DNA of 64,000 nt, taken from sequence record PZ357121.2, one strand, 5' to 3'. Shown here piece after piece: positions 1,176 to 61,205 of the stretch. The notes beneath the pieces were generated by a model, which searched no databases, was not told where the DNA came from, and was given only the letters and a program-made list of their open reading frames with translations. A program made the translations under genes and the position numbers. Within the stretch, counting starts at the first letter, position 1; every line of letters begins with the position of its first letter. Source of the stretch: a phage.

Positions 1176-1203
1176 TTTATTCTCCAGATGTTTAAGTTGT
1201 TTG

Positions 1204-1245
1204 TTGGTACAGGTCTATAATAACAAAACCTGTACCAAAGTAAAC
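1204..1245 (-). promoter_or_regulatory. T4-type early promoter with flanking inverted repeat
   Basis: Minus strand reads GTTTAC (plus 1240-1245), 17-nt spacer, TATTAT (plus 1217-1222); inverted repeat ttggtacagg (1204-1213) / cctgtaccaa (1229-1238) brackets the -10. Confidence 0.5.
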
Positions 1246-1621: not shown

Positions 1622-1659
1622 TTTATTCTCCGGTTGTTTTATTGATTAGGTGGTACAAG

Positions 1660-1691
1660 TCTATAGTAACACATCCTACAGGAGAGTAAAC
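1660..1691 (-). promoter_or_regulatory. T4-type early promoter
   Basis: gtaaac at 1686-1691 (GTTTAC on minus), about 17 nt from a TACTAT-like -10 (plus tatagt 1663-1668). Confidence 0.4.
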
Positions 1692-1727
1692 ATCTTTTTA
1701 AACTTTTTCTGCCCTAAACGCACAAAA

Positions 1728-1745
1728 GGGAGACCGAAGTCTCCC
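1728..1745 (-). terminator. intrinsic terminator hairpin
   Basis: Perfect palindrome gggagaccgaagtctccc; on the minus strand it is followed by a T-run and lies just after the stop of the small gene 1751-1930. Confidence 0.6.
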
Positions 1746-1750
1746 TAAAA

Positions 1751-1930
1751 TTATGCAACAACCTTTCCAAAACGAGAAGCATCATCTCGAAGAACTGCAC
1801 GTGCTCTGCGCATGATCTTCTCAACGGTTTGATTAATACGAGAGTTCGACCCACGCTTGTATCCAGCGCGTTTAGAGGTACCATCAACTTTCTTTTCAAC
1901 TGCTTTCTTTGCTTTAGCTTGTTTTGCCAT
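1751..1930 (-). CDS. small highly basic protein (59 aa), absent from the ORF track
   Basis: ATG at 1930 with AAGAG upstream, 60 codons, stop at 1751-1753 directly followed by the terminator hairpin; translation MAKQAKAKKAVEKK...; the overlapping track ORF 1714-1899 is in another frame and probably spurious. Confidence 0.5.
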   Translation of the reverse strand: MAKQAKAKKAVEKKVDGTSKRAGYKRGSNSRINQTVEKIMRRARAVLRDDASRFGKVVA

Positions 1931-3367: not shown

Positions 3368-3938
3368 AAAAGTTTCGGATTTGTTCCCAATTCAGAGAAC
3401 GAAGATTATTACGAGAGTACTGAATTACTTCAATACCGGCTTGTTTAAGAATGTCTGCCCAATTTTCAGGAGATCTGTCATATAACTCAGCGTATACAAC
3501 CTTTTTAATACCTGACTGCGTAATAGCTTTAGTGCAATCAGGACATGGAGAAAGCGTAGTATATAACGTAGCACCTTCAATAGAATTACCTTTACGAGCT
3601 GCAAATAAAATTGCATTCAATTCTGCATGGATTTCGTTATTAGCAGACCATGCACTATGAGCAGCCCGATGTTCTTTAGCCAAAACAAAATTATCTGCCC
3701 GTCCAAATGCTGTAGTACCTTCTTTATGACCAGCAACGATGACCGGGCTTGGTTTATTCTTCAACCAACCGTTTTCGGATGCATGTTCGCAACAGTTTGT
3801 ACCACCTGAAGGAGAGCCATTATAACCTGTAGAAATAATGCGTCCATCTTTTTCAATGACTGCGCCAACTTTCCATGAACAACATTTTGATTCTTGAGAA
3901 ATCAGATATGCAATCTGAAGGTATGTGCTAGCTTTCAT
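3357..3938 (-). CDS. cd: dCMP deaminase
   Basis: 193 aa with zinc-dependent cytidine/dCMP deaminase motifs HAE (HAELNAILFAARKG) and PCxxC (SPCPDCTKAI); T4 cd position. Confidence 0.9.
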   Translation of the reverse strand: MKASTYLQIAYLISQESKCCSWKVGAVIEKDGRIISTGYNGSPSGGTNCCEHASENGWLKNKPSPVIVAGHKEGTTAFGRADNFVLAKEHRAAHSAWSANNEIHAELNAILFAARKGNSIEGATLYTTLSPCPDCTKAITQSGIKKVVYAELYDRSPENWADILKQAGIEVIQYSRNNLRSLNWEQIRNFCGE

Positions 3939-4930
3939 TATTGAACCTTATTAATATAAGTTAACAGCTCTTTAGTTTGTTCCCAACTGATGCACGCATC
4001 GGTAATGGAAACGCCATAGGACATATTATCAGAAATTTTTTGATTTCCTTCATGTAGGAACGATTCTATCATAATTCCTTTGACCAAATCATTAGATGCT
4101 AAATTTTTACCAATACCAATTTGATTGCTATAATGCCCAGCAGCGTTTGCATGGCTACAGTCAACCATTACATAATGATTCAGACCTACTGCACTTGCTT
4201 TGTTAGAAGCTTCTTGAATATCAGAAGAATGATAGTTCGGGCCGTTAGTCCCACCACGCAATACGATATGCGTATTCTGATTACCTTCAGCTTCAACAAT
4301 GCCTACAGTACCATCGACGTCCATACCCATATACCGATGAGGCCAGGCGGCACTATACATCGCGTCTGTAGCTACTTTAATAGAACCATTGGTTGCGTTC
4401 TTGAAGCCTACGCACATCGGTAGACCTGAAGCAATTTCACGATGTGTCTGACTTTCAGTCGTACGGGCGCCAATAGCAACCCATGAGAAAATACCAGAAA
4501 GATACTTAATCGTGAATGGGTCTAATACTTCAGTTGCTAATGGAAGTCCCATACGTAGAAGTTTACGACACAATGTTCGTGCAACTATAAGACCGTGGTT
4601 CATATCAAAACTTCCGTCAAGATATGGATCATTTACAAGACCTTTCCAACCTACGGTAGTTCGAGGCTTTTCAAAATAAACGCGCATCACTAACAGAACA
4701 TTAGGAAGACGAGTTTGAAGTTCAGCCAGACGTTTGCCGTATTCAACAGCAGCAATAGGGTCATGAATTGAACAAGGACCTACAACAATAAGTTTGCGTG
4801 GGTCTTCACCATTCATAATCGAATTAACTTGTTCGCGATGAGAAGCCACTTGTGATGCGTAAGCTTCCGACAAAGGAATAATCTCAGCCAGTTCTTTTGG
4901 AGAAATAAGTTTTCCGACGACAGGTAACAT
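3938..4930 (-). CDS. 3-deoxy-D-arabino-heptulosonate-7-phosphate (DAHP) synthase, class I AroG/AroF-like
   Basis: 330 aa with strong AroG-like blocks: VVGPCSIHDP, MRVYFEKPRTTVGWKGLVNDP, WVAIGARTTESQTHRE, GFKN, IVLRGG; start has AAGGA RBS; not part of the T4 gene set. Confidence 0.85.
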   Translation of the reverse strand: MLPVVGKLISPKELAEIIPLSEAYASQVASHREQVNSIMNGEDPRKLIVVGPCSIHDPIAAVEYGKRLAELQTRLPNVLLVMRVYFEKPRTTVGWKGLVNDPYLDGSFDMNHGLIVARTLCRKLLRMGLPLATEVLDPFTIKYLSGIFSWVAIGARTTESQTHREIASGLPMCVGFKNATNGSIKVATDAMYSAAWPHRYMGMDVDGTVGIVEAEGNQNTHIVLRGGTNGPNYHSSDIQEASNKASAVGLNHYVMVDCSHANAAGHYSNQIGIGKNLASNDLVKGIMIESFLHEGNQKISDNMSYGVSITDACISWEQTKELLTYINKVQ

Positions 4931-5287: not shown

Positions 5288-5347
5288 TTCTATTTCCTCA
5301 TTTGTTGGTAGAGTTATAGTATCACAACTCCACCGTGTTGTAAACCA

Positions 5348-5855: not shown

Positions 5856-6036
5856 TTAACCATTCAATTGCCTGGTCGACGTTATCAAATATACCGCCGT
5901 CTAAACGTTCTTCATGCTCATAGTCCAGCACATCAATACCGAACTGTCCATTTACTAAAGGCCGTACGCCGAAGAAAAAGCATTTACGTTTTTCAATTTC
6001 TTCGATTGTACGAAAAATCTTTTCGATATTATTCAT
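5836..6036 (-). CDS. hypothetical protein
   Basis: 66-aa ORF on the gene strand. Confidence 0.45.
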   Translation of the reverse strand: MNNIEKIFRTIEEIEKRKCFFFGVRPLVNGQFGIDVLDYEHEERLDGGIFDNVDQAIEWLNENYVR

Positions 6037-6763
6037 TAGTTTTCCATTTGCGGCCTAATTGCCAATCAGGATGGCTCAATCTAGGGTCGTTTTCATCTGT
6101 TGTAGAAGATTTCTTACCTGAAATATGGATAAGCCATTTTCTGGATTTAGCTGCTTTAGAATAGTTTTCTTTTGCCTCATCTGAACGAATCTTACCTTTA
6201 TTCGCTTTGGATATTTTATTACCCCATTCTATAATAGCTTCTTCGCTCATAAAATCTTTTACATTTTTACCGTACATAGGATTATTTTCGCCTTCAAATG
6301 AATTACCATTTTTAAGACGACTTTCTTTAGATTTAATCCCATGCCCTGGTAATTTCTTGCCTTTAATCCATGGCACGGCACCGTTTTTATATCTCTGTTT
6401 TTGTGTTTCTGAAATTTTTAATGAAGTTTCAGGACTGGAATTAACATTAATACGGTTTTCATTGATATAATCCCAGCCTCCTTCTCCGCCGGGTTTCAAA
6501 TTATAATTAGTATCCAATTTTATAAATTCTTTAGTTACTAATTCAGCTTCTAAATCATATGCTTCTTGTTTAGTTTCAAATATTTTTATGATTTCTTTAT
6601 TAAAAGAATCTTTACCATATTTTGATTCGGCATTTTTAAAAGCTGTACCGGAACCTAAATAAGAATCATTTTCTTTTAAGGTGGTCTTATGAACCCCTAT
6701 ATAAATTTTGTTGTTAACCAAACACGTGGTTTTATACACAGTGTATTTTTCCATTAGAATCAC
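6029..6763 (-). mobile_element. GIY-YIG homing endonuclease (Seg-like), free-standing
   Basis: N-terminal GIY-YIG module (KIYIGVHKT...YLGSG) followed by basic K/G-rich repeats typical of Seg DNA-binding tails; track start is GTG, probable true ATG at 6754 with GAGGTG RBS. Confidence 0.75.
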
Positions 6764-8191: not shown

Positions 8192-8214
8192 TTAGATTTC
8201 CTCAATTATCCATA

Positions 8215-8249
8215 GGAGCATTATACTCTGCTCCCGAGAGTTTGTAAAC
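8215..8249 (-). promoter_or_regulatory. early promoter with hairpin cassette
   Basis: Minus GTTTAC (plus 8244-8249), 18-nt spacer, TATAAT (plus 8220-8225); inverted repeat ggagca (8215-8220) / tgctcc (8229-8234) around the -10; near-identical copy at 37382-37417. Confidence 0.5.
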
Positions 8250-8473
8250 TATTTTACTAAAGATTCAATATACTCATGAAGAGCTTTAGTCGCTACTGCC
8301 CACTTATTCTGATATTCATTTTTCAGATTAGCACGAGACTGAACTAACAAGCGGTCATTAGTCGGAGGCAAAGATTCTAATCGTTGAATCTGGCGCCCAT
8401 AAATCATAGCCGCCATTTCAGATTCATAGATAAGCCCTTTAATGTATTCATGCTGTTCTTTAGTCATTGGCAT
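8249..8473 (-). CDS. hypothetical protein
   Basis: 74-aa ORF. Confidence 0.5.
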   Translation of the reverse strand: MPMTKEQHEYIKGLIYESEMAAMIYGRQIQRLESLPPTNDRLLVQSRANLKNEYQNKWAVATKALHEYIESLVK

Positions 8474-9107: not shown

Positions 9108-9595
9108 GTTTTAATAATCTCAATGATTTCATCTCGGGATAATCTATTGATAAGAACGGTTTTCGGACCATCGCACTGGATTTTGTACGATTCAAACAAT
9201 ACACACAACTCTTCTGCTGTATGATACGGACTTGAGATTCCGAGACGGTTGAATTTGTCGGTAAGAGGATCGCAAATAATGTAGAATTTTATACCTGAGA
9301 TATGTACGTTTGGTTGACTAATATTAATGAACACATTGGCGTCATATTTAGTCAAATTGTTTTGAAGAAATTCTACCATGGCATTAACTGCTTCCGGCAT
9401 CGCTTCACGTTTCTCTTCGGTGTAACGTGTTGAATATTCCTTTTGCTTTAACTTCTTTTTAGCATTTTTCGCTAGAGTAACACGTAGGTCAGTAAGATAA
9501 CCAACTGCACGGCCTTTCTTAAAGACTCGGATTCCGTCTGTAGAATCACCAAATGCTGCCACAACCATATCGTTAGTAATCAATTGCATATTCAT
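9095..9595 (-). CDS. alc: Alc-like protein (host transcription elongation inhibitor), called by position and size
   Basis: Track ORF 9095-9658 overlaps an early promoter; ATG at 9595 (MNMQL...) with GAGGAG RBS gives 167 aa, the size and position of T4 alc between pseT and rnlA. Confidence 0.5.
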   Translation of the reverse strand: MNMQLITNDMVVAAFGDSTDGIRVFKKGRAVGYLTDLRVTLAKNAKKKLKQKEYSTRYTEEKREAMPEAVNAMVEFLQNNLTKYDANVFINISQPNVHISGIKFYIICDPLTDKFNRLGISSPYHTAEELCVLFESYKIQCDGPKTVLINRLSRDEIIEIIKTCLK

Positions 9596-9625
9596 AATTT
9601 TCTCCTCGTGTTGTTGATAAAAGCC

Positions 9626-9655
9626 ATAGTAACACCTTCCTTGGTGTTTGTAAAC
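9626..9655 (-). promoter_or_regulatory. T4-type early promoter
   Basis: Minus GTTTAC (plus 9650-9655), 18-nt spacer, TACTAT (plus 9626-9631). Confidence 0.45.
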
Positions 9656-9657
9656 CA

Positions 9658-10791
<1,134 letters not shown>

Positions 10792-10836
10792 TCAGTTAGT
10801 TTTTTAAATTGTACCACAATCCTTGTGGCATGTAAA

Positions 10837-11247
10837 CTACTTTTTCTTATGTTGGATATTCCAAGGCGGGTTGAACTTTTTGATAAAAAGCGGTTCTTCA
10901 AGGTCCATTGTTGCGATGGTCATTGAACCAAGTTCGTTGGTGACTGAAAGGTCAAAACATTGGCGGGCCCAGAATTCAACCTTTTTGCCTTGCATTAAGG
11001 CATCCAAAATCATAAGTGATTTTCTTGAATCTGAAGTCTGGTCTTTTCGATTTATGGCTGTTCGATAATAGTTAATGCGTTTCTTTAAATTCTTGGTTTT
11101 ACCAATATACACAAGTTCGTCATCTATAGCAATAGCGTATATGACATTTTTCTTATTAGGGACATCAACTGTTTTAATTGTTGCATCTTCTAATAGCTCC
11201 AATTCTGTATATTTAATAAAGGAATATTCGGCGGCAATATCTTTCAT
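10837..11247 (-). CDS. denA: endonuclease II (GIY-YIG family)
   Basis: 136 aa with GIY-YIG-like core (YAIAIDDELVYIGKTKNLKKRI); T4 denA size and position next to nrdB. Confidence 0.8.
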   Translation of the reverse strand: MKDIAAEYSFIKYTELELLEDATIKTVDVPNKKNVIYAIAIDDELVYIGKTKNLKKRINYYRTAINRKDQTSDSRKSLMILDALMQGKKVEFWARQCFDLSVTNELGSMTIATMDLEEPLFIKKFNPPWNIQHKKK

Positions 11248-12466: not shown

Positions 12467-13456
12467 TTAAAGCTTACAAGCAGAACAATCTTCAGCTTTA
12501 GGTGTTTCTAATTCATAGTCATCTGTACCTGACCCATCACGAGTGTTATGATAGTAGAGGTTTTTTCCGCCAAAGTACCAGAAGTAAAGTAGATCGTCAA
12601 GCATTACTGACATTGGTACTTTACCTTTCTCAAATACTGCAGGGTCATAGTAAGTATTAGCAGAAGCAGATTGGCACACCCATTTCAACATGATAGCAAC
12701 TTGGGTCAAATAAGGTTTATTACCTTTCTTAGCAAGTTTCCACGCATAGTCGTAAAGACTCATATTATGTTCGATATTAGGAACAACCTGTCGGAAGTTG
12801 CCTTCTTTAGATTCTTTAATACTTACTGGACCACGCGGGGGCTCAATCCCGTTTGTAGAGTTTGATACTTGGCTGCTTGACTCACAAGGCATGAGTGCAG
12901 ACAACGTTGAGTTACGAATTCCGTGTTCTTTGAGTTCAGCTCGAAGTTCTTCCCAGTCACAGACGTAGTTCGGGGCTGCGATTTGGTCAATCTTTTTATT
13001 GTACCAGTCGATAGGTAATTCGCCTCTAGACCATTTAGTGTCTGAATAATACTCGCAACATCCTTTTTCTTTGGCGAGTTTGATTGAAGCTTTGATAAGG
13101 CCATATTGCAATCTCTCAAACAATTCATGAGTCAAATCGTTAGCGTCTTCATACGAAGCAAAGTTAGAAGCTAACCATGCAGCATAGTTCGTAACACCAA
13201 TACCGAGGTTTCGACGCTTTTTAGCTTTTAAAGCTTCTGGAACCGGATAATCTTGATAGTCTAACAGGTTATCAAGTGCACGTACTTGTACTTCAGCAAG
13301 TTCATTAATTTTATCTTGGTCTTGCCAATCAAATTTATCAAGAACAAAGGCAGAAAGAGTGCAGAGGCCCACTTCACCTTTGTTTTCAATAACTTGTATT
13401 GTTGTATACTCATCATCTTCGTAAAATTCATCTACAAATTCATAATCAATATTCAT
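12467..13456 (-). CDS. nrdA: ribonucleotide reductase large subunit, C-terminal piece
   Basis: 329 aa aligning to the C-terminal third of NrdA (GLCTLSAF..., SALMPCESSSQVSNSTNGIEPPRG, C-terminal CSACKL); has its own ATG. Confidence 0.85.
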   Translation of the reverse strand: MNIDYEFVDEFYEDDEYTTIQVIENKGEVGLCTLSAFVLDKFDWQDQDKINELAEVQVRALDNLLDYQDYPVPEALKAKKRRNLGIGVTNYAAWLASNFASYEDANDLTHELFERLQYGLIKASIKLAKEKGCCEYYSDTKWSRGELPIDWYNKKIDQIAAPNYVCDWEELRAELKEHGIRNSTLSALMPCESSSQVSNSTNGIEPPRGPVSIKESKEGNFRQVVPNIEHNMSLYDYAWKLAKKGNKPYLTQVAIMLKWVCQSASANTYYDPAVFEKGKVPMSVMLDDLLYFWYFGGKNLYYHNTRDGSGTDDYELETPKAEDCSACKL

Positions 13457-14156
13457 TTAATTCTTCTACCTTTTTTCGAGATATTCCTAGAGCTTTAGAT
13501 GCTCGATGTATTGATTGATATTCTATACCGTTTATTTTTACAGCAATTAAGTTATGGGGTTTTAATCCCTTTGGATGAGGTTTACTGACGTATTCTTGAT
13601 TATCGTTTTCAGAGATATTATCAAGCTTTCGACACTTAAAGCCTTTATGTTGAGACCTTTTGCCTTTGCATACGGCCGACATTGCCGAAGCATTGAGTGA
13701 ATGTAGTTCGCAAAATTCTCTTAGGCCTTTATGGATTTCTTCATGACCGTCTGGGAAAGTAAATACCCAAGTTGTTTGAAGTTTTTCTCTATGCTCGTCA
13801 GTTACCGGAATACCTTTGTTCCAAGCTGGTTTGCCTTTATTATTTTCAGATACAGAAATAGCCAATTTTCTTCTAAGCCACCCATGGCGTTTATTGGTGT
13901 TCTTTCGTTCAATATTATCTTCAGAATAAACACACATCATATTAGCGGCAAATACCAATTTATAATTATCTGGATATATCTTTACTAATAATTGATGAGC
14001 TATGTAATGCTCTTCGGGTGTCAAATCTACCAGGTTTTCCTTTGTATCAGAACCACCAATACACAGAGGTATAATATGGTGTGATTCGGTATAGCAATCT
14101 AATTTTCTGTTCTTAGCTTTAGAAATAAGGTTATTGTAAATTTTAGAATAATCCAT
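13446..14156 (-). mobile_element. HNH homing endonuclease (MobE-like) inserted within nrdA
   Basis: 236 aa with HNH core (ESHHIIPLCIGGSDTKENLV...EEHYIAHQ) plus repeated NUMOD-like DNA-binding modules; ATG at 14156. Confidence 0.8.
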
Positions 14157-14201
14157 AACTTTTCCTCTTGTTATGGATTATTTATTAACGGTCTGTGTAC
14201 T

Positions 14202-15635
14202 TTATTTGCTTTGAATTATACCGCCAGGATTAGCTTCATAAAACTTAGCTACATCCGACTTCTTAATTTTGATTAAACGGGTTTGTTGGCTATTCACATC
14301 ATTAGTTGGAATAGCGATTTCACAACATAAGTTACTCTGACGAATTGGAGCTTTTTCACGAATAAATGGAGTGTAGTTATTCGTGTTATCAACGAATTGT
14401 GGATAAATTCGAGCAGTGCCAGAACGTTCAGTCATGAACAATTCAAAGAGTTCTAGTGCTTTGATTCTTTTCTTTCTGATTGTCGGGTCTTTTTCAGCTT
14501 TCTCATAAAGCTCACGGAATTTATCTTGATCTTCAAAGAACGAGTAGTATAGTTCGCCTGACATTTCGTGAGGGCTAAATAAAGTAATATAATCATTTTT
14601 ACCAAGGCGTTCCATCATAAGGTCATTAATCTGAATTCCGTAGTCCATATGTCGAATACGGTTTTCATCCACGCCTTTGTTATTTTTCAGAACTAATAGG
14701 TTCTCTACTTCTAAGTGCCACATCGGATAATACGCTGTAGCAGCACCACCACGAATACCACCTTGAGAACAAGATTTTACTGCAGTTTGGAAATGTTTCC
14801 AGAATGGAATAACACCTGTATGTCGAACTTCACCCATACCGATCTTAGAACCTTCTGCACGAAGCATACCAACGTTGATACCGATACCAGCTCGTTTAGA
14901 AATATATTCAATAATTGATGCTGAAGTTTTGTTAATAGATTTTAACGAATCACCGGCTTCAATAACTACACAACTAGAGAACTGGCGAGTTGGAGTACGA
15001 GCACCTGCCATAATTGGAGTAGGCAATGAAACTTGATGAGTAGAAACGGCATCATAAAAACGAATAATATGTTTCAAACGGTCATGAGTTTCGTTTTGGT
15101 GTAAGGCCATGCCAATAGCCATGATAGCAAACTGGGGAGTTTCATAAATCTTCCCAGTTGTTTTATCTTTAACTAGATATTTTTCTTTAAGCTGCATAGC
15201 ACCAGCATAAGTCAGGTCAAAGTCTCGTTCATGTTTAATCTGTGAATCGAGATAAATGATTTCTTCTGCTGAATATTGAGACAACAGCTCAGGGTCATAT
15301 TTGCCTTCATTAACACAATAAGAAATATGGTCGATAAAAGCAGGCGGTTCAAACTGCCCATATACATCTTTACGAAGTGCAAACATTAGCCCTTTGGCGG
15401 CGACATACTGATAATCAGGTTCTTCGACAGAAATCGAGTTAGCTGCAACTTTAATACAAATCTTCTGGATATCTTTGGTGCTCATCCCGTCGACAAGATG
15501 GGTCTTAATTTCTTCGTACAATTCATATGGGTCAATTTGTGTTCCTTCACACTGCCAAGTTAAGACTTGAATAATTTTCTGTGCATCAAAATTTTGGGAT
15601 ACACCTGAATTTTTCACTACTTTAAAATTATACAT
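14202..15635 (-). CDS. nrdA: ribonucleotide reductase large subunit, N-terminal piece
   Basis: 477 aa aligning to the NrdA N-terminus through the active-site block SNLCCEIAIPT, then ending in its own stop. Confidence 0.85.
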   Translation of the reverse strand: MYNFKVVKNSGVSQNFDAQKIIQVLTWQCEGTQIDPYELYEEIKTHLVDGMSTKDIQKICIKVAANSISVEEPDYQYVAAKGLMFALRKDVYGQFEPPAFIDHISYCVNEGKYDPELLSQYSAEEIIYLDSQIKHERDFDLTYAGAMQLKEKYLVKDKTTGKIYETPQFAIMAIGMALHQNETHDRLKHIIRFYDAVSTHQVSLPTPIMAGARTPTRQFSSCVVIEAGDSLKSINKTSASIIEYISKRAGIGINVGMLRAEGSKIGMGEVRHTGVIPFWKHFQTAVKSCSQGGIRGGAATAYYPMWHLEVENLLVLKNNKGVDENRIRHMDYGIQINDLMMERLGKNDYITLFSPHEMSGELYYSFFEDQDKFRELYEKAEKDPTIRKKRIKALELFELFMTERSGTARIYPQFVDNTNNYTPFIREKAPIRQSNLCCEIAIPTNDVNSQQTRLIKIKKSDVAKFYEANPGGIIQSK

Positions 15636-16275
15636 AATAATTCCATGTTGGATAATTTGATGATTTTAGACGGCGTCTAACCGTTTGGGTGCTCATAGAT
15701 AAAGCTATTGACGCTTCATTTAATGTATCATATATTACGTCGTTTATAATTACTTTCTTTGCAAATGGATTCTTAGCTCCTATCATAGCATTAGAAATAG
15801 CTTGCTTAGTTGATTCTTTTAATGGGACTCCTTTAGAAATTTTTGATTTAATTTTTATATTGTATTGTCCACGTTTTTTACCTAATAAAGAATTTCGTAT
15901 CTTTTCTTTAGTCTCTTCAGATTTAACATGTCCTAGTTTGGAACGAGATATTTTATCTTTTGTTTTTTGGTCTAATTTTCGCCCTTTAAGCAAATCAACC
16001 ATTTTTGCTCTAGCCCATCCAAATTCTTTATTATTTCTAGAACTCATTAAATTAACCGCGGTTGCTAAACCTAAATTGTTCGGATATATTTTTAATAAAA
16101 GAAGATGAGCCAAATAATGTTCTGAATATGTTAATTTAACTAGATTGTATGACTCATTGGTGCCACCTAAACATTTTGGGATTATATGATGCCATTCACC
16201 ATCTATATCTTCAAAATTTCTTTCTTTATTTACCAAGTTTTTATATATTTTTAAATAATCCATAATATAATCCAC
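15628..16275 (-). mobile_element. HNH homing endonuclease, free-standing, upstream of nrdA
   Basis: 215 aa with HNH core (WHHIIPKCLGGTNESYNLV...SEHYLAHL) and K-rich NUMOD-like repeats; track start is GTG, probable ATG at 16263. Confidence 0.75.
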
Positions 16276-16338
16276 TTTGTAGTATCAACGGGATAGTATT
16301 TATCCCGTTAATTTATTATACACTTTTAAACTGAAGCG

Positions 16339-18289: not shown

Positions 18290-18353
18290 TTTATTCTCCG
18301 CTTCACTTTTGATTTGATAGGGCTACTATAACATAGCCCTATCTTGTTATAAA

Positions 18354-18746
18354 CTACTTTTTAAAAGTTTTTTGCAAAAGTTTGATGATTTCGTCGACGT
18401 TGGTTTCATCTACGATACAATGGATTTTTGTTACACCTAAAGTTATACCTTCGTTAGTAGGTTGAGGCTTTACTAAATCTACCTCAGTAAAGTATTTGAA
18501 CTCGTCAGGATAAATCTCAAAATAAGTTTCAATTTCACCGCCGGCAGAGCATACAGTACCGTCTTCCATAGTTACACTTACTACATTTGGCGTATCGTCA
18601 TCATAATCAGGTTCCATTCCGTTTACAACAAAACTAGGCCCGTGGAGTTCAATCAATTTTAACATCTTAGCGTTATTGTGCGGCGCTTCTTGAACAAAGT
18701 CGTCTTTAAATAAAGGGTTAATGATATAAGATTTTCCGATTTCCAT
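18354..18746 (-). CDS. hypothetical protein
   Basis: 130-aa ORF with an early promoter upstream. Confidence 0.5.
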   Translation of the reverse strand: MEIGKSYIINPLFKDDFVQEAPHNNAKMLKLIELHGPSFVVNGMEPDYDDDTPNVVSVTMEDGTVCSAGGEIETYFEIYPDEFKYFTEVDLVKPQPTNEGITLGVTKIHCIVDETNVDEIIKLLQKTFKK

Positions 18747-18775
18747 TTTGATTTCCTCATGTTGTTGATAAGTCT

Positions 18776-18804
18776 ATATTAACACATCCAGGGAAGAAGT
18801 AAAC
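18776..18804 (-). promoter_or_regulatory. T4-type early promoter
   Basis: Minus GTTTAC (plus 18799-18804), 17-nt spacer, TAATAT (plus 18776-18781). Confidence 0.45.
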
Positions 18805-18829
18805 AGCTTTTTCGGCAATTTACAGATAC

Positions 18830-18853
18830 TCAAAAGGGAGACCGAAGTCTCCC
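18830..18853 (-). terminator. intrinsic terminator downstream of gene 32
   Basis: gggagaccgaagtctccc (18836-18853) followed on the minus strand by CTTTTG. Confidence 0.6.
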
Positions 18854-18859
18854 GATTTA

Positions 18860-19762
18860 TTATAGACCTGCTAACAGGTCATCGAGGTCACCATCATCAG
18901 AGGATGAGGTAGAGCTCATGAAGTCATCTTCAGTTTTTGCAGAACTAAAGGCTTCCATGTCTTTATCAAAATCGTCAAGGTCAGAAGCAACTTTATCTGC
19001 AACAGAAGCTGCTGCGGCTGCTGCACCACCAAGAGCGGCAGTACCAAGAACCTTAGCGAAAGATTCATTTAATTTTTCAAAGGATTTGAACTGGTCTTTA
19101 GCCGTCAAAGTGGTAAGGTCTACCATCTGGTCATATAGTTCTTTCTGGAATGCTTCATCATTAATACGAGGAATTTCAGATTGACCCAAGAATTTAGATT
19201 CGTCATAGTTGCTAAAACCAGAAACCTGCTTAGCTTTCAGAACGAAGTTAGCACCTTCAAACGGACAAGTAACATCAACTGGAGTTTCACCCATTTCGGT
19301 ATCAACTGCAATCATTGCATTGATTTTGTCCCAAATCTTTTTACCGAAACGATATTTAAATACTTTACCTTCGTTATCTGGAGCTTGAGGGTCTTTAACA
19401 ACCAGAATATTAGCCCAATAAGAAGTTTTACGTTTCAGTTGAGAATATTCAGCTTTGTTGGTATTGTACAGGTCATTTTTACTAATGTACTGACATACAG
19501 GACAAGAGTCGTAATCACCATGTGTAGAAGAGCAATTTTCAATATACCATTTACCATTTTTCTTGAAACCGTGGTTAACAAGAATTGCAAATGGTAGTGC
19601 ATCATCAGTTTTTGCTGGCAAGAAACGAATTACCGCTTGACCATTACCGGATGCATCTAGCTTCAGCTTCCATTCGCCTTTATCTTCTGAAGAGAAACCT
19701 TTGTTACCATTCAGTTTAGCCATTTGAGCAGCGAGGTCAGCAGTAGATTTACGTTTAAACAT
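18860..19762 (-). CDS. 32: single-stranded DNA-binding protein gp32
   Basis: 300 aa, strong similarity to T4 gp32 including the zinc-site residues (H...CPVCQY) and acidic C-terminus. Confidence 0.95.
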
Positions 19763-22040: not shown

Positions 22041-22071
22041 ATGAACCTCTTGTTCAGTTAGTCAACTTGTC

Positions 22072-22102
22072 TATAGTAACACACTCATTTGAAAGCGTAA
22101 AC
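22072..22102 (-). promoter_or_regulatory. early promoter for rnh
   Basis: Minus GTTTAC (plus 22097-22102), 18-nt spacer, TACTAT; divergent from the late promoter of gene 34. Confidence 0.45.
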
Positions 22103-26019: not shown

Positions 26020-26027
26020 GAGGTATT

Positions 26028-27155: not shown

Positions 27156-27160
27156 ATTTA

Positions 27161-27178
27161 GGGAGACTTCGGTCTCCC
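27161..27178 (+). terminator. intrinsic terminator after gene 35
   Basis: gggagacttcggtctccc followed by ATTTTTG on the plus strand. Confidence 0.6.
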
Positions 27179-27185
27179 ATTTTTG

Positions 27186-27193
27186 TATAAATA
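27186..27193 (+). promoter_or_regulatory. T4 late promoter (TATAAATA) for genes 36-37-38
   Basis: tataaata about 25 nt upstream of the gene 36 ATG. Confidence 0.55.
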
Positions 27194-27217
27194 TGGTATA
27201 CATATAAGGAGACAACT

Positions 27218-27883: not shown

Positions 27884-27891
27884 GAGGACTT

Positions 27892-31008: not shown

Positions 31009-31038
31009 GGAGAAGGGGCTTCGGTCCCTTTTTATAAT

Positions 31039-31590: not shown

Positions 31591-31599
31591 GGAGGTATT

Positions 31600-32532: not shown

Positions 32533-32578
32533 AACGTTTTATTCATTCCATTTAGTTGATATGGATATAGTACCAATA

Positions 32579-32794
32579 TTAGTGTTGATTGTAAACGGCC
32601 TTTTCTACGCTTTTAACGTAATTGGTATAGTCTTCCTGTTCATACGAGTGTAAGGCCAAGAACGGAACTAATAGTTCATTATAGACTAAAGCCTCACGCT
32701 CACGTTCGGCCTCTACTACGTTCTGGAGATTATGACTCATATCGTTCCTTATAACTATCAATGTAGTCCTGTATGTCGAAGAATGACATTTCAT
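32579..32794 (-). CDS. hypothetical protein
   Basis: 71-aa ORF overlapping arn at its 5' end; true start may be the internal ATG near 32740. Confidence 0.4.
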   Translation of the reverse strand: MKCHSSTYRTTLIVIRNDMSHNLQNVVEAEREREALVYNELLVPFLALHSYEQEDYTNYVKSVEKAVYNQH

Positions 32795-35041: not shown

Positions 35042-35080
35042 TTTATTTCTCCAATTTGGTTGTTTTGTTTTGATAGGTCT

Positions 35081-35109
35081 ATAATATCATGTTTGAAGCA
35101 CATGTAAAC
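35081..35109 (-). promoter_or_regulatory. early promoter for motA
   Basis: Minus GTTTAC (plus 35104-35109), 17-nt spacer, TATTAT (plus 35081-35086). Confidence 0.45.
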
Positions 35110-35120
35110 TGTTTTGTGAG

Positions 35121-35152
35121 AAAAAAATGCACAAAAGGGAGCTTCGGCTCCC
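35121..35152 (-). terminator. intrinsic terminator downstream of gene 52
   Basis: gggagcttcggctccc (35137-35152) followed on the minus strand by TTTTGTGCATTTTTTT. Confidence 0.55.
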
Positions 35153-35228
35153 TAATCATGTTTGTCCAACCAATACAGCCAAATCACTAGTACAGCTATT
35201 GCACCGAGAAATCCTAAGGCTATGGCAC

Positions 35229-37344: not shown

Positions 37345-37381
37345 GCTAATTTCCTCAATTGATTAATGTTTTGTAATCCAT

Positions 37382-37417
37382 GAGAGCATTATACTCTGCT
37401 CTCAAGAGTTTGTACAA
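37382..37417 (-). promoter_or_regulatory. early promoter with hairpin cassette (second copy)
   Basis: gagagcattatactctgctctc; TATAAT on minus (plus 37388-37393) and TTGTAC -35; about 90 percent identical to the cassette at 8215-8249. Confidence 0.5.
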
Positions 37418-37620: not shown

Positions 37621-37680
37621 TTTGTATTCCTCGTGTTTTGATAGGACTACTATACCATAATCCTACCTTGATGTAAACAA

Positions 37681-38134: not shown

Positions 38135-38202
38135 GATGTTATCCTCTTTTAGATAGGACTACTATATCATAGTCCTACTTAGTTGTAAACACTTTTATGA
38201 AA

Positions 38203-46561: not shown

Positions 46562-46815
46562 TAAGTTGTACCATTTTCAGTGATTTCACGGAAGATACCA
46601 TAGATAGGCATTTTGTCACCGAGTTTTTCATAAACGTAAACCACTTCGGTGTAGCATAAAAATTCAGTCCAGTTTTTCTGTACAACAACTAAATCAGGAT
46701 TAAACAGAACATCTTCAAACTCATCGATGTTTGAATCAGTGGTTACGTTTTTAATGATTTGACGTTTCATAATATTCTCCTCTTGTTTTGATAGGTCTAT
46801 AGTATCATAGGCCAT
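46543..46815 (-). CDS. hypothetical protein
   Basis: 90-aa ORF downstream of an early promoter. Confidence 0.5.
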
Positions 46816-46827
46816 AGTTGTTGTACA

Positions 46828-47409
46828 TCATTTTAGCAAAATAAAATCAACTTGTTCTGCCAATGAACGTCTAAACATTAATTGACAACTTCCGAGGATG
46901 AAATCAGGTGCTTCATAGACCGCGATGTAGTATCCTTTAGCTTTCAAAAGTTCAACATCCACCTGGTCATCAAACCATGCATAAACCGCGTCAACACTTT
47001 CAAATCCAAAATAGAACCCTTGGGCCCAATCTTCACTCAATTCAAATGTGTGCTCAATTCTATAGTATCTTAAGATATTTTGTTCAAGGAGTTTGTCTTC
47101 ATTTACTGTAGGACGATTAGGGACATTATAGTTGTCACCGTGATGGTAGAAGTTACCTGAGATTATTCCATGTTTATCAAGGAACTCCCATGTTTCTTCA
47201 GAGTTGTCGGTGCCCGACCAACCGTATGGCGAACGAGGTTCTTTATTCCAAGAGGTTTCCCAAATTCTGACGGCTTTACCATCTTCGATAGCAATTCCTG
47301 GTAATGATTCACGTTGAGTACAAAAACTACGTTCTACGCGGTAAACTAACATATTATTCTCCTCTGGTTGATATGGGTATAATATCAAAACCAGAGGAGA
47401 AGTAAACAA
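46828..47409 (-). CDS. hypothetical protein
   Basis: Track ORF overlaps an early promoter; probable ATG at 47352 (MLVYRVERS...) with GAGGAG RBS gives about 174 aa. Confidence 0.5.
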   Translation of the reverse strand: MFTSPLVLILYPYQPEENNMLVYRVERSFCTQRESLPGIAIEDGKAVRIWETSWNKEPRSPYGWSGTDNSEETWEFLDKHGIISGNFYHHGDNYNVPNRPTVNEDKLLEQNILRYYRIEHTFELSEDWAQGFYFGFESVDAVYAWFDDQVDVELLKAKGYYIAVYEAPDFILGSCQLMFRRSLAEQVDFILLK

Positions 47410-48338: not shown

Positions 48339-48404
48339 AATTTTTTCTCTCTTTGTTTAAGTTGAATTCATTATACTCCATCCATCCTTGGATGTAAACT
48401 GATT

Positions 48405-51462: not shown

Positions 51463-51615
51463 AATATTTTCCTCTGTCTTACGGACGTTAAGGTCATTTA
51501 GCTGATAAGCTTATAATATCATGCCCTCAGGTAGTGTACACTCTTTTTTCATAAAATGCTTTAATTTTTTATGTGTTATAATGGTTCTGAATTCCATCCG
51601 GTTATTCCAATCCAG

Positions 51616-52224
51616 TCAGTAACCAACAATAGACAGATTCCAGATTGTATAACGTCCATCTTGAATAATAGAATCTACACGCAGTGTAGTCCCTATAGGG
51701 AGCATAAATTCACATTCGTCAGATATAAGTCTAGCATTAGACCGTCTTGTCGCTTCAGGGAAAGCTCCATTGAACTCACAAGATGGCGCAGCCAGAATCA
51801 TGTTAAGCATATGTTCACGGAAGTTGAAAGCAAATGGTGCATCTTTGATGCAGAACATAGTAAATGTTCCGTAAAAATTATACGAAGCAAAGTTACGTGC
51901 TACACCGAACACTGGGCTGAAGCTCATTACTCTGTCAAATTTAATAATACTACCAATGCCTTTATCATCGAGTGTGGCCATAGTTTTCTTAGAGATTCCA
52001 CGATACATTGTCTCAGGAACAGAAGACGTCCAATTTCTACGAACGATTGAACTTAACTCCTGTTGAATACAGTCTGGCTTGTTTTCCATACATTGCCATA
52101 GTACACTTTGTTCAATGTCGCTGAATTGACTATCAATTTCGTACTGCAATACATCTTGATATTCGGGGTTTTGAGCACGACGAACCATTTCTTCAATTTC
52201 ACACTCATTATACGGCATAAACAT
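51616..52224 (-). CDS. ADP-ribosyltransferase ModA/ModB family
   Basis: 202 aa with R-S-E-type elements (YRGIS, SFSP, ECEF) in the T4 modA/modB position; only one copy seen here. Confidence 0.6.
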   Translation of the reverse strand: MFMPYNECEIEEMVRRAQNPEYQDVLQYEIDSQFSDIEQSVLWQCMENKPDCIQQELSSIVRRNWTSSVPETMYRGISKKTMATLDDKGIGSIIKFDRVMSFSPVFGVARNFASYNFYGTFTMFCIKDAPFAFNFREHMLNMILAAPSCEFNGAFPEATRRSNARLISDECEFMLPIGTTLRVDSIIQDGRYTIWNLSIVGY

Positions 52225-52571
52225 TTAGGTTTCTCCTCTGGTTGATAAAAGTATAGTATCATCGTCGGTAGAGTTTGTACACTAAAAATTCAATATTTTC
52301 AAATGAATGATTTTGTTAGGTATTCGCGTTCTTGAAGTTCAGATTGACATGTCATGATAGACCTCCATTTAAAGATAAGCCTATCATAACACGAGAGGAG
52401 GGAATGTAAACTACTTTTTAAGCTTTCCTACTAAAGGTCCTGATGGACCTGGTTGTTCTAACATGAATAATGATGCTTTAAAAAGCAATGCCAACCCTTT
52501 CACCATTCGATACCATGCCTCAAAGTCTTTTTCCTTGATTTCTAGTAAGAATTTCTCTTTAAATTTCTCTT

Positions 52572-53834: not shown

Positions 53835-53901
53835 ATTGTTCTCCTCTTGAGTAAGTAAGAATATCTTAACACAGTTTTTAGTGGTTGTAAACTGTAGAAA
53901 C

Positions 53902-53932
53902 AAAAAAAAAAAGGAATCCCGAAGGATTCCTT
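53902..53932 (-). terminator. intrinsic terminator downstream of soc
   Basis: aaggaatcccgaaggattcctt followed on the minus strand by a run of about 10 T. Confidence 0.65.
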
Positions 53933-57721: not shown

Positions 57722-57784
57722 TTTAACTCCTTAGTTGATTTGATAGGACTACTATACTATAGTCCATTTATAATGTAAACAACT

Positions 57785-58033: not shown

Positions 58034-58094
58034 GTTAATTTCCTCTTGATTTGTTATGTTTATAGTATCTTATTTTAACTTTGGTGTAAACCAA

Positions 58095-58463: not shown

Positions 58464-58523
58464 TTCAATTTCCTCTGTAGTTGATAGAAAGATAGTAACA
58501 CAGTATGTGGGGCTTGTAAACAG

Positions 58524-59243: not shown

Positions 59244-59298
59244 TTTGTTCTCCAGTAGTTGATAGGTCTATAATAACACAACTACTGGAGAAGTAAAC

Positions 59299-59673: not shown

Positions 59674-59738
59674 AATGTTTTCCTCTTGGTTTGTGTAAGT
59701 ACATCATATCATGCCTAGAGGAAGATGTAAACCCCGAA

Positions 59739-59757
59739 AGGAGACCGAAGGTCTCCT
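59739..59757. terminator. GC-rich hairpin (possible bidirectional terminator) after gene 41
   Basis: aggagaccgaaggtctcct; T-run on the plus side and U-rich tract on the minus side. Confidence 0.45.
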
Positions 59758-59762
59758 TTTTA

Positions 59763-61205
59763 TTAAAATTTTAACTCATTGGCTAAGCTATCTAGGTCAG
59801 CACGTGTTGCTTTGGCTTTACCTACGCGTTCCGTACGATTCACCTCTGCCTGACGCATCTGAGCACCTGCGTTTTCATTTACTGTGTTAGGTGTGTTCAT
59901 GCCTTCTTGCTCAATCTCAATCCATTTCTGGTTGCCTTTGCGTACACCCATAAGGAATTTATTCCACTTATTTTTATCACCATATCGTGATTTGATTTGT
60001 TTGATAAGTTGTTGTTCAGCTTGTGCAAGTTCTTCGGTTTCAATTACAGCCAACATGAAATCTGCCGTTGCTGGTAAACCTGCTGATTCTGCAATATCAC
60101 TCATGTTCATATCCGAAGCATCCCATGCTGCACGTCCTACTTGAGCTGCAGTCCATAGAACTGTTTCAGATTCTACTGCTAATGCACGAAGTTCTTCTGC
60201 GATAGCTTTAACTAATGTGTAGCTATTTTCAGTGTAAACTCTGATACGACAAGACCCACAAATACCTAAGTAATCAACCATGATTACAGACGGCACAAAG
60301 TTCTTCTTAAGTTTTAACTCATTAAGCAATGCACGGAATGTATTAGCATTAGCTCCACCAGTAGGATACTGCTTAACTACTAAACGTCCTAATGTGGATT
60401 TTGAACGCCATTTTTCCATCTTGGCTTTATATTCAGCATAAGATACGTTACCATCATCGATATCGTCGAGCGATACGTCAAGCATGTTTGCATCTATACG
60501 CTTAGCACAAACTTCTTCAGCCATTTCCATAGAAATATAAAGAACATTATGACCTGTTTGAAGATAATCTGCAGCAAGTGAACAAAGGCCTAAAGATTTA
60601 CCAACGTTAACGCCTGCCATTAAAACGTTTAGTGTACCGGTTTCAGCACCACCTTTAGTGATTTTATTCAGAATGTTTAATTTGAACGGGACCTTACGTG
60701 CTTTGTTCAGATAAGAAAGCCAGCGTGCTTCATAGTCTTCCATCCAGTCGTGTCCAACATAACTATCAAACGAAATTGAAAGTGCTTGACGCATAATATC
60801 AGGAATAGCTCCTACGTCAGGCATTTTCTTGTTACGTTGTTCTGGAGGTAGTTCAGCATTAGACTGAATCTCAATGATTTTGGACGTAGCGTTATACATC
60901 GCTTTTTGCTGGACATATTTCTCAGTTTCTTTAACCAACCATTCGTGGTCTTCAGGAGTATCAGCCAATTTTTCAATTAGGTCTGAAGTTCCTTTATATT
61001 CGGCTTCAGTTAAAGAACTGTTATCTAAAGCCACCTTTAACGCATTGATAGATGGCATTGCATTATATTCGTTAACGTGGCTCTTTATAATTTTAAAGAC
61101 GTTTTTTGCCGGTCCACGCTCAAAATACTCAGAATCCATATAAGGCCAGACCTTAGAAAAATAAGCCTGGTCATATACTAGATGAGACAAAATAATTTCT
61201 ACCAC
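59763..61205 (-). CDS. 41: replicative DNA helicase gp41 (DnaB family)
   Basis: 480 aa, high similarity to T4 gp41 over full length, Walker A GVNVGKS. Confidence 0.95.
   Translation of the reverse strand: MVEIILSHLVYDQAYFSKVWPYMDSEYFERGPAKNVFKIIKSHVNEYNAMPSINALKVALDNSSLTEAEYKGTSDLIEKLADTPEDHEWLVKETEKYVQQKAMYNATSKIIEIQSNAELPPEQRNKKMPDVGAIPDIMRQALSISFDSYVGHDWMEDYEARWLSYLNKARKVPFKLNILNKITKGGAETGTLNVLMAGVNVGKSLGLCSLAADYLQTGHNVLYISMEMAEEVCAKRIDANMLDVSLDDIDDGNVSYAEYKAKMEKWRSKSTLGRLVVKQYPTGGANANTFRALLNELKLKKNFVPSVIMVDYLGICGSCRIRVYTENSYTLVKAIAEELRALAVESETVLWTAAQVGRAAWDASDMNMSDIAESAGLPATADFMLAVIETEELAQAEQQLIKQIKSRYGDKNKWNKFLMGVRKGNQKWIEIEQEGMNTPNTVNENAGAQMRQAEVNRTERVGKAKATRADLDSLANELKF

Follow-up and report, generated by a model that had tools for sequence, protein, structure and literature searches.

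Gene layout and predicted early promoters

The DNA analysed here, referred to below as the window, comprises 64,000 nucleotides of a phage genome (sequence record PZ357121.2). Megablast identified it as a Mosigvirus, an RB69-like T-even coliphage: many isolates are 96-99% identical to it, and the identity to RB69 is ~94-97%. Our subject is a type of cassette that recurs in the intergenic gaps of this phage, consisting of a predicted early promoter and, in part of the cases, an inverted repeat that encloses or adjoins the -10 box. The gene order was taken from a mapping of RB69 proteins onto the window. The genes from 30.4 to rnh occupy the minus strand at 73-22040 and the tail-fibre genes 34-38 and t the plus strand at 22144-32259; also on the minus strand are asiA, motA, 52, ndd, denB, rIIB, rIIA, 60+39, motB, dexA, dda, modA, soc, 61, imm, 41 and uvsX. 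All cassettes are read on the minus strand, which is the gene strand. A tRNA scan of the window found nothing, and Rfam at its gathering threshold gave no match in the whole window.

An earlier note on this DNA had reported promoter-plus-hairpin cassettes at many intergenic junctions. By reading all intergenic gaps and aligning them on GTTTAC, we obtained 27 promoter cassettes, and to that extent the description was correct; a hairpin, however, is present in only 10-13 of them, and the others are promoters without a significant hairpin. The cassettes occupy gaps of 55-75 nt, in which the stop codon of the previous gene adjoins or overlaps the -35 box. Their order is constant: an A-rich upstream tract, the -35 box GTTTAC, TGn, the -10 box TAnnnT, a start region TATCAA, a Shine-Dalgarno sequence (SD) and ATG. 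The spacing of 17-18 nt given in the note becomes 16-17 nt under the sigma-70 convention, in which TTTACA is aligned to TTGACA.

The cassette consensus is aaaAa..gtTTAcaa...TG.TAttATA..C.TATcaA. The 25 nt upstream have an A+T content of 0.74 (A 0.40), compared to 0.62 (A 0.32) in the window, TG is found at -15/-14 in 21 of the 27 cassettes, and an SD and start motif follows 20-44 nt past the -10 box in 24. We counted 21 minus-strand matches to GTTTAC[AT]-N16/17-TAnnnT and not a single plus-strand match; 200 dinucleotide shuffles gave 0.55 +/- 0.73. A scan with the generic sigma-70 consensus was uninformative in this AT-rich genome (57 sites, 65 expected), and only the T4-specific pattern discriminates. 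An independent search for dispersed direct repeats returned the cassettes as the top and largest families in the window (D1-D3 and D7-D9), and UUCG-loop terminators as family D5.

Nolan et al. (2006; PMC1524935, Additional file 3) predicted 58 early promoters in RB69 by a hidden Markov model. In the region that matches the window there are 28 of these, 27 of which map to cassettes, and 26 of the 27 cassettes are covered. The A-tract, -35, TGn and -10 elements are those of T4 early promoters (Hinton 2010, PMC2988021), and the same consensus elements are found in the T4 early promoters of Liebig & Ruger (1989) and Miller et al. (2003) and in the RB69 predictions; the T4 RefSeq record has no annotated promoter features. 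The genes downstream of the cassettes are orthologues of T4 early genes. We are therefore highly confident that the cassettes are T4-type early promoters, an activity that we infer from consensus and orthology.

Inverted repeats around the -10 box

For folding we used 46 nt around each -10 box, with shuffled flanks and 807 TAnnnT sites in coding sequence as controls. Ten of the 27 cassettes folded at -9 kcal/mol or below, 13 differed from the flank shuffles at p < 0.05, and the mean folding energy of the whole set lay at z = -11.7 relative to these shuffles. At -8 kcal/mol or below there were 41% of the cassettes, compared to 20.6% of the coding controls. Besides the cassettes with embedded stems there are five with a terminator hairpin upstream, and roughly a third have neither. 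The RB69 predictions include 50 early promoters that could be analysed, and around the -10 box 28 of them fold at -8 kcal/mol or below.

The copies cited in the earlier note were all found where it had placed them, on the minus strand. Its near-identical pair, here called family 1, reads GTTTACAaactctcGGGAGCAgagTATAATGCTCCTatgg at 8249-8209 and TTGTACAaactctTGAGAGCAgagTATAATGCTCTCAtgg at 37417-37377. The first cassette (8192..8249, minus strand) lies between pseT.1 and the open reading frame (ORF) ORF231c and is the orthologue of RB69 Pe:136687. Its -35 box GTTTAC is at 8249-8244 and its -10 box TATAAT at 8225-8220; the stem GGGAGCA/TGCTCCT (5' arm ~8235-8229, 3' arm 8220-8214; -12.2 kcal/mol) is followed by the SD GAGG and an ATG at 8191. 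The second (37345..37417, minus strand; RB69 Pe:165022) lies between ndd.1 and ndd, with -10 TATAAT at 37393-37388 and an 8-bp stem TGAGAGCA/TGCTCTCA of -13.9 kcal/mol, for which the covariation is given in alignment A1. The note had assigned GTTTAC to both copies, and this is true of the first; the -35 box of the second is TTGTAC. Four differences separate the two copies, every one at a paired position, and the pairing is kept or improved.

Family 2 has the form TAGGACTA-tgatatag-TAGTCCTA. The three copies already noted, at 37678, 38190 and 57780, are joined by a fourth at 18354 that had been overlooked. All are on the minus strand. The copy 5' of ndd.1 (37621..37678; RB69 Pe:165283) has GTTTACA, -10 TATAGT at 37654-37649 and the stem TAGGATTA/TAGTCCTA with one U.G pair (-13.7 kcal/mol; covariation in alignment A2). 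That between denB and ORF270c (38135..38190) has the stem TAGGACTA/TAGTCCTA (-13.2 kcal/mol) and -10 TATAGT at 38166-38161, and its orthologue, RB69 Pe:165795, is the top-scoring RB69 early promoter. The imm/sp copy (57722..57780; RB69 Pe:19020) has a shorter stem, GGACTA/TAGTCC (6-7 bp, -9.0 kcal/mol), with -10 TATAGT at 57756-57751. The frd.2/frd.1 copy (18290..18354; RB69 Pe:145300) has GTTTATA and a 10-bp stem GATAGGGCTA/TAGCCCTATC of -18.7 kcal/mol, in which GGGCT/AGCCC replaces the GGACT/AGTCC of the other copies, a compensatory change from A-U to G-C.

Homologues were gathered from public viral contigs by DNA patterns in which the arms were left unconstrained. A protein locus search in IMG/VR seeded with Ndd yielded three loci only, and the DNA-pattern scans and GenBank Mosigvirus records were used. 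The family-1 pattern ACAAACTCT-N8-GAGTATAAT gave 23 distinct variants. The stem is formed by 19 of these, all with a T-even-type -35 box; the other four are unrelated matches of TTGACA/TTAACA type without a stem. The arms include GGGAGCA/TGCTCCC, GGGACCA/TGGTCCC (T4 motB), GGGGTCA/TGACCCC, GAGAGCA/TGCTCTC and GAGAGA/TCTCTC. Over the 8-pair helix of the 23 variants, 87.5% of the cells are paired, compared to 35-50% when the partner is slid. Double-sided changes number 25 against 9.1 +/- 2.3 in shuffles (0/500), and six of the eight pairs covary.

The family-2 pattern GTTTACA-N17-TATAGTAG matched 103 distinct public-contig sequences. Only ~25-30 of them, mostly family-2-like, fold at -11 kcal/mol or below, and the remainder are at background level; therefore the stem is no consequence of the promoter consensus. 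For covariation we took 33 sequences, picked solely by the three pairs fixed in the pattern, and scored the nine free pairs. All nine covary, and there are 42 double-sided changes against 14.7 +/- 4.0 (0/500). In both families compensatory changes are thus far above the shuffled controls, and we have little doubt that the stems are under selection. T4 has its own versions, with family 1 at motB and family 2 at dmd (12-bp stem, -21.7 kcal/mol). The idea that family 1 is a target of RegB was rejected: its 5' arm contains GGAG, but the T4 copy has GGGACC and the motif is not conserved.

The third type of the earlier note was recovered at 1245, between 30.8 and 30.7 (1176..1245, minus strand; RB69 Pe:131670). 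Its stem TTGGTACAGGT/ACCTGTACCAA of 11-13 bp holds the -10 box TATTAT in the loop (-18.3 kcal/mol), and it is paralogous to the cassette at 1691 (repeat family D8). A similar layout is seen between cd.3 and cd.2 (5288..5345, minus strand; RB69 Pe:134561), where the loop of a 9-bp stem with one G.U pair, GGTGGAGTT/AACTCTACC, holds -10 TACTAT (-16.0 kcal/mol).

In two minus-strand cassettes, the -10 box and the start site are both enclosed by an 11-bp stem whose 3' arm includes the SD. One lies between ORF010c and motB.2 (47353..47407; RB69 Pe:7443), where the 3' arm of CTCCTCTGGTT/AACCAGAGGAG is the SD of motB.2 (-20.4 kcal/mol). The other, between ORF041c and ORF040c (59244..59298; RB69 Pe:20537), has the stem CTCCAGTAGTT/AACTACTGGAG with the SD GGAG within the 3' arm (-17.7 kcal/mol). 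SD-masking stems around the -10 box and start were also seen at the early promoters of RB69 regB (61327-61376, Pe:61376; 11 bp) and T4 motB.2 (~8218; -23.1 kcal/mol). T4 motB.2 has the same layout as motB.2 of the window with a different stem sequence. Therefore, the layout recurs at specific genes across genera although the sequences differ. An internal start within the loop of an SD-sequestering stem was seen at these four sites; in families 1 and 2 the 3' arm ends near +1.

Strand asymmetry and geometry of the stems

Among the stem-bearing sequences, non-Watson-Crick cells are unevenly distributed on the gene strand. G.T or T.G cells outnumber A.C or C.A cells by 17 to 3 in family 1 and by 24 to 7 in family 2, or 41 to 10 when pooled. 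Gene-strand G.T cells would be A.C mismatches on the opposite strand, and no such bias would arise in a feature of the symmetric duplex, be it an operator palindrome or a cruciform. The bias is expected if selection acts on the RNA of the sense strand or on a single DNA strand.

The 5' arm lies upstream of the predicted start in every case. Eight stems bracket the -10 box and stop short of the SD; their 3' arms end 10-18 nt past the first -10 base, and the predicted start is at ~12-13. At 10837 both arms are inside the spacer, and the two SD-masking stems at 47407 and 59298 reach the SD. Because of the position of the 5' arm, the hairpin is possible only in RNA from an upstream promoter and not in the cassette's own transcript. 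The placement of the -10 box in the loop is what the packing allows, the spacer and the discriminator or leader being the only free positions in gaps of 55-75 nt. These sequence features suggest that the pairing is selected in the read-through RNA, and the stems probably act at the RNA level.

Gene content at the cassettes

We compared the window with RB69, AV112, HX01 and mar005P1. Leaving aside the tail-fibre mosaic of genes 37/38, the comparison shows 13 distinct indel events, of which three are cassette-bounded. In the first, the window does not have ORF012c and motB.1. The single cassette between dexA and motB (48339..48399, minus strand; spacer hairpin CATCCA/TGGATG, -7.6 kcal/mol) aligns to both flanking cassettes of RB69 with a 65-bp overlap, which is also seen against AV112, HX01 and mar005P1. 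It is visibly chimeric between these two RB69 cassettes and marks a recombination junction. The two RB69 cassettes differ by a compensatory change in the spacer stem, CAACCA/TGGTTG versus CATCCA/TGGATG. In the second event, HX01 has an extra ORF of 71 amino acids between two 86-bp copies of the gene 52/motA cassette (35109), each extending from the -35 box to the third codon. In the third, the indel of RB69 ORF245c breaks in the leader of the 18804 cassette (TATCAACAA..GAGG) and is bounded by ~25 bp of leader homology.

These three Mosigvirus indels have breakpoints inside cassettes, and a complete lack of association with variable gene content, which by the earlier note would have refuted its reading, is therefore not what is seen. 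Across genera, the family-1 cassettes join one conserved upstream flank cluster (U0) to four downstream clusters (D3, D4, D7 and D12), and the variable flanks include extra ORFs of 153 and 160 amino acids directly 3' of the pseT.1 cassette. Of the remaining events, four are insertions of homing endonucleases, three of them in the window and one in HX01; the others are a gene of the DAHP-synthase family, an in-frame internal deletion in modB, and a few small ORFs or spacers. It seems quite likely that the cassettes occasionally act as recombination substrates. Neighbouring pairs are 512 bp apart at 37678/38190 and 446 bp apart at 1245/1691.

The 250-nt gap between ORF270c and ndd.1 (37621-37870) lies between the family-2 cassettes 38190 and 37678. 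It contains only tiny ORFs, which are annotated as proteins of 28-36 amino acids in AV112 and HX01, and may be the remnant of an exchanged gene cassette.

Remaining cassettes

The cassettes described in this section are again on the minus strand. Hairpins placed wholly in the spacer were found, in addition to that at 48399, between denA and rnlA (10783..10837; RB69 Pe:139277), where CCACAA-gga-TTGTGG lies directly 5' of -10 TACAAT (-8.3 kcal/mol), and between rnlA and alc (9590..9655; RB69 Pe:138093), where the arms are AACACC/GGTGTT (-7.3 kcal/mol).

Five cassettes are composites of a terminator and a promoter. Between gene 52 and motA (35042..35153), the terminator GGGAGC-cgaa-GCTCCC, followed by TTTTG, occupies 35153-35136, and the promoter with its -35 box at 35109 has no significant embedded hairpin. 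Between gene 32 and frd.2 (18747..18862), a UUCG-loop terminator at ~18856-18834 precedes a promoter with its -35 box at 18804 and no embedded hairpin. The 30.9/30.8 composite (1622..1754; repeat families D5 and D8) has a UUCG-loop terminator at ~1750-1726 and a promoter with its -35 box at 1691, in which the embedded stem is degenerate (-5.8 kcal/mol). Embedded hairpins are likewise missing between soc and mrh.2 (53835..53930; terminator GGAATCC-ttcg-GGATTCC with a T-run, -35 at 53892, -3.0 kcal/mol) and between gene 41 and ORF041c (59674..59765; terminator GGAGACC-ttc-GGTCTCC, -35 at 59732, -3.7 kcal/mol).

No significant hairpin was detected in the promoter cassettes 5' of rnh (22041..22102; RB69 Pe:149309), 5' of asiA (32533..32596, overlapping the end of ORF258c; RB69 Pe:160217), 5' of srd (51463..51541; RB69 Pe:12088) and 5' of modA (52219..52282; RB69 Pe:12829), the last two with -35 GTGTACA, or in those between 61.4 and imm.1 (58464..58521; RB69 Pe:19761) and between imm.1 and imm (58034..58091, 0 kcal/mol; RB69 Pe:19331). 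The motB.2/cef cassette (46771..46828; -35 ATGTACA) has a 7-bp stem with a C.A mismatch (-4.4 kcal/mol), which is perfect in RB69 (-9.5 kcal/mol). At the modB remnant (52356..52411; RB69 Pe:13466) there is a weak CCTCC/GGAGG pairing with the SD. This remnant has 18 codons, left by an in-frame deletion of 504 bp relative to RB69, AV112, HX01 and mar005P1 (breakpoint 52312-52316), and its promoter, with the -35 box at 52411, is intact.

An element at 42480 was dropped from the cassette set because it is absent from the predicted RB69 early promoters. It lies 5' of rIIA.1 (42410-42501) and has an 11-bp inverted repeat, GGCACTATTAC...GTAATAGTGCC, with a 29-nt loop and a weak promoter-like match, TATTACA-N17-TATGGT.

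Discussion

The earlier note had compared the cassettes with the promoter early stem-loops (PeSLs) of T4-type phages, and the comparison is supported: their architecture contains the elements by which Arbiol et al. (2010, PMC2839356) defined a PeSL. On the whole, we favour the explanation that they are PeSL-type composite regulatory cassettes of Mosigvirus. Host sigma-70 RNA polymerase would read each cassette as a strong T4-type early promoter, behind which come a short leader, the SD and the first codon of the small early gene that follows. An inverted repeat, present in about half of the cassettes, uses the positions that are free in sequence, with the 5' arm in the spacer and the 3' arm in the discriminator or leader, or with both arms in the spacer, and the -10 box thereby comes to lie in or beside the loop. 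The pairing would be selected in the sense transcript, and the hairpin would form only in read-through RNA. There it may insulate transcription units, in that read-through is attenuated, or the upstream message receives a structured 3' end, or both. Where the 3' arm is the SD, as at motB.2, ORF040c and RB69 regB, translation of the downstream gene from read-through RNA would be blocked. The cassettes are also the main dispersed repeats, with similarity over 25-110 bp, and would therefore serve as substrates of homologous recombination by which small genes between them are deleted, inserted or swapped. We observe how the cassettes are built, their excess over chance, covariation of the arms, asymmetric mismatches and recombinant junctions; promoter activity, RNA-level action and insulation are our interpretation of these observations.

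It could be argued that the inverted repeats act in DNA, either as a cruciform or single-strand hairpin that presents the -10 box in its loop and tunes the open complex or early shut-off, or as a structure that is cut by endonuclease VII and forms a recombination hot spot. The -10 box is indeed in or beside the loop in most cases, recombination junctions fall in cassettes, and DNA hairpins have a certain tolerance for G.T pairs. The shut-off of T4 early promoters is 'not completely understood' (PMC3014915). However, 41 G.T against 10 A.C cells rule out a requirement for a symmetric duplex or cruciform, and a -10 box in the loop is already expected from packing a stem into the free positions of a short gap. 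Stems wholly in the spacer (48399, 10837 and 9655) or reaching the SD (47407 and 59298) do not fit, the recombinant cassettes are those with weak stems, and half of the promoters are stemless. We consider an action in DNA unlikely. The same asymmetry speaks against operators for a dimeric phage or host repressor of early promoters, although dyad-symmetric repeats over the -10 box are in the classic position for one; at least eight unrelated arm sequences occur in the window alone, the arms within each family change by compensation instead of being conserved, and the loop length and register vary. This explanation, already disfavoured, is very improbable. Finally, the hairpins might be a by-product without function, arising from chance complementarity in AT-rich promoters or from paralogous copies through gene conversion. 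The cassettes are paralogous repeats, and half of the promoters work without stems. Chance can hardly account for the departure from the flank shuffles, for promoter-pattern matches that mostly fold at background level, for compensation far above both shuffled and slid controls, or for SD-masking stems of different sequence at motB.2 in both T4 and the window phage, and we regard a by-product as scarcely credible.

In the original reading of PeSLs, the stems would be ordinary Rho-independent terminators of the upstream gene that overlap the next promoter. The stem-loop of RB49 PeSL211/210 lowered read-through into lacZ to about the same extent as rrnB T1 (PMC2839356). In RB69, embedded hairpins and canonical upstream terminators are mutually exclusive: none of four promoters after a canonical terminator has an embedded stem, compared to 28 of 46 others (p = 0.03). 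In the window the figures are 0 of 5 and 11 of 22 (p = 0.054). However, a U-tract or T-run follows none of the 11 strong stems (the tails are such as TATGGATA and TCAAAACA), and a terminator scan of the gene strand flagged separate terminators with UUCG or GNRA loops and none of the promoter-embedded stems. The combination of a GC-rich stem and a direct U-tract, which marks intrinsic terminators, is found at the separate UUCG-loop terminators (D5) and not at the embedded stems. The latter differ from the polyG/polyC stems of RB49 in being short (6-11 bp) and AU-containing, and the SD-masking stems point to a translational role in at least a subset. By these sequence features the embedded stems are not canonical terminators, and we judge this reading, too, improbable.

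Since embedded stems and canonical terminators exclude each other, the data suggest that the embedded stem, in short gaps, serves a related purpose where the upstream message ends, namely attenuation, the provision of a protective 3' structure, or both. Such an insulating function is plausible, but we do not go so far as to favour it. Several points weigh against the composite-cassette explanation or parts of it. U-tracts are missing in a genome that has canonical UUCG-loop terminators, and efficient intrinsic termination is therefore unlikely, and 'attenuation or stabilisation' is a tentative reading. Half of the promoters are hairpin-free, so the hairpin is dispensable for promoter function and for insulation generally. 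The mismatch bias would also fit a hairpin in one DNA strand, and the counts ignore phylogeny. Three of 13 indel events in cassettes that fill ~30% of the intergenic DNA, by a rough estimate, are no enrichment, and the case for recombination therefore rests on junction homology. The three recombinant cassettes have weak stems or none, and sequence similarity, rather than the hairpin, thus seems to drive the exchange.

A further possibility, about which we are more doubtful, is that the embedded stems are not terminators but RNA-level 'origin-of-transcript discriminators', kept by covariation across T-even genera. Because the 5' arm is always upstream of +1, hairpin-bearing early genes would give two mRNA species. 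The read-through species would have a structured junction, acting as a 3'-end or processing barrier for the upstream cistron, and its downstream cistron would be blocked in a graded series up to full SD masking. The promoter-proximal species would be fully open. If this is true, the mechanism known from the late promoters of genes e, soc and 49 would hold as a general rule for early genes throughout the genome, and the replacement of canonical terminators by stems in short gaps would be explained.

For RB49 and phi1, Arbiol et al. (2010, PMC2839356) used lacZ fusions to show that PeSLs act as promoters and terminators, and they detected mini-circles. The window cassettes resemble these PeSLs in the AT-rich tract, sigma-70-like -35 and -10 boxes ~17 bp apart that face the downstream ORF, a stable stem-loop between the boxes or over the -10 box, G-T pairs in the stems, an SD and ATG at the 3' end, a location between small early ORFs, and the presence of chimeric cassettes at indel junctions. 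The -35 box, however, is of the T-even type, GTTTAC, instead of the TTGACA of RB49 and phi1. The stems are of mixed sequence (AGGA/TCCT, AGCA/TGCT and others) and not polyG/polyC, they are found on only about half of the promoters, and canonical terminators occur apart from them.

PeSLs were extended to T4 and PST by Comeau et al. (2014, PMC4122927), who gave the stem as 'AGNA-loop-TCNT' and the promoter consensus as TTTACW-N17-TAYWAT. T4 and PST belong to the T-even subgroup, as does the window phage, the promoter consensus agrees, and the ndd-denB locus is an exchange site in their Fig. 6A. AGGA/TCCT fits their stem motif, and AGCA/TGCT fits only if the printed TCNT means the reverse complement TNCT. 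Their legend puts the stems 'just upstream of the promoter', whereas the selected stems in the window bracket the -10 box or sit in the spacer; hairpins upstream of the -35 box in the window are separate canonical terminators. No analysis of RB69-type phages (Mosigvirus) was found in the available parts of PMC2839356 and PMC4122927, and a text search of the former gave no mention of RB69. None of the terms 'stem-loop', 'hairpin' and 'inverted repeat' turned up when Nolan et al. (2006) was searched for them, and the sole mention of 'stem-loop' in Hinton (2010) concerns intrinsic terminators generally. A literature search for T4 transcript-end maps or for other accounts of promoter-embedded stems gave nothing usable beyond the PeSL papers and reviews. 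As far as the available parts of these papers go, the cassettes are a known kind, the PeSL, that has not been reported for Mosigvirus; new with respect to this literature are the quantified stem compensation, the sense-strand G.U bias, the exclusion of the hairpin from the cassette's own transcript, its exclusion with canonical terminators, and the SD-masking subset.

Two other systems are comparable. The T4 genes e, soc, 49 and I-TevI have an SD-sequestering leader hairpin with an internal promoter (Uzan & Miller 2010, PMC3014915). At motB.2, ORF040c and RB69 regB, too, the 5' arm lies upstream of the proximal start, so that read-through RNA alone would mask the SD and the proximal transcript would be translatable. 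In the T4 genes the internal promoter is late and delays expression; here it is early, so that only the transcript from the gene's own early promoter would be translated. The lambdoid morons (Juhala/Hendrix) are single genes flanked by their own promoter and a terminator-like element, as is the extra ORF of HX01. In PeSLs, unlike in morons, the regulatory repeats themselves provide the homology for insertion and deletion, and the base composition is not foreign (Nolan 2006, PMC1524935).

PeSLs are proposed vehicles for the shuffling of small host-adaptation genes in T4-type phages and have already been described in the RB49 and KVP40 branches. With the RB69-group cassettes and their recombinant junctions, the T-even examples now comprise a Mosigvirus besides T4 and PST, and the window supplies concrete candidate cassette pairs for mini-circle tests. 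Stem compensation, the G.U bias, the two kinds of exclusion and SD masking make the function of the stems testable instead of assumed. We recommend that annotations label these sites as early promoters that contain an RNA structure, and not as terminators.

Other features of the window

A minus-strand ORF of 330 amino acids at 3938-4930, between cd and cd.2, belongs to the DAHP synthetase I family (PF00793, E 1e-74). It is absent from RB69 (a 1.1-kb insertion) and is a metabolic-type gene in the T-even early region; its junctions are not cassette-bounded.

The gene nrdA is split (12467-15635, minus strand). The ORF at 14202-15635 corresponds to residues 1-445 of RB69 NrdA plus a tail of 29 amino acids, and the ORF at 12467-13456 to 26 new residues plus residues 449-751. 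Between them is an ORF of 236 amino acids for an HNH/I-HmuI-like endonuclease (13446-14156). Rfam found no group I intron at the split. The layout resembles the 'genes-in-pieces' ribonucleotide reductase that phage Aeh1 reportedly has. Two further free-standing minus-strand ORFs that RB69 does not have are homing-endonuclease-like: a GIY-YIG/Seg-like ORF at 6029-6763, between cd.4 and pseT, and an ORF with an I-TevI-type DNA-binding domain at 15628-16275, between nrdA and nrdA.2.

Between rIII and 30.9 there is a spacer of 365 nt without ORFs (1931-2295), apparently GC-richer than its surroundings and without a tRNA or Rfam match; RB69 has unrelated sequence in place of 2048-2201. Either a small RNA or the remains of a gene may lie here. 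Between orf215 and nrdA.2 (16276-16338), a 9-bp hairpin AACGGGATA-aatac-TATCCCGTT lies downstream of a TGTATAAT(AAAT) box. This element may be a middle- or late-type promoter with a structure, of another kind than the early cassettes.

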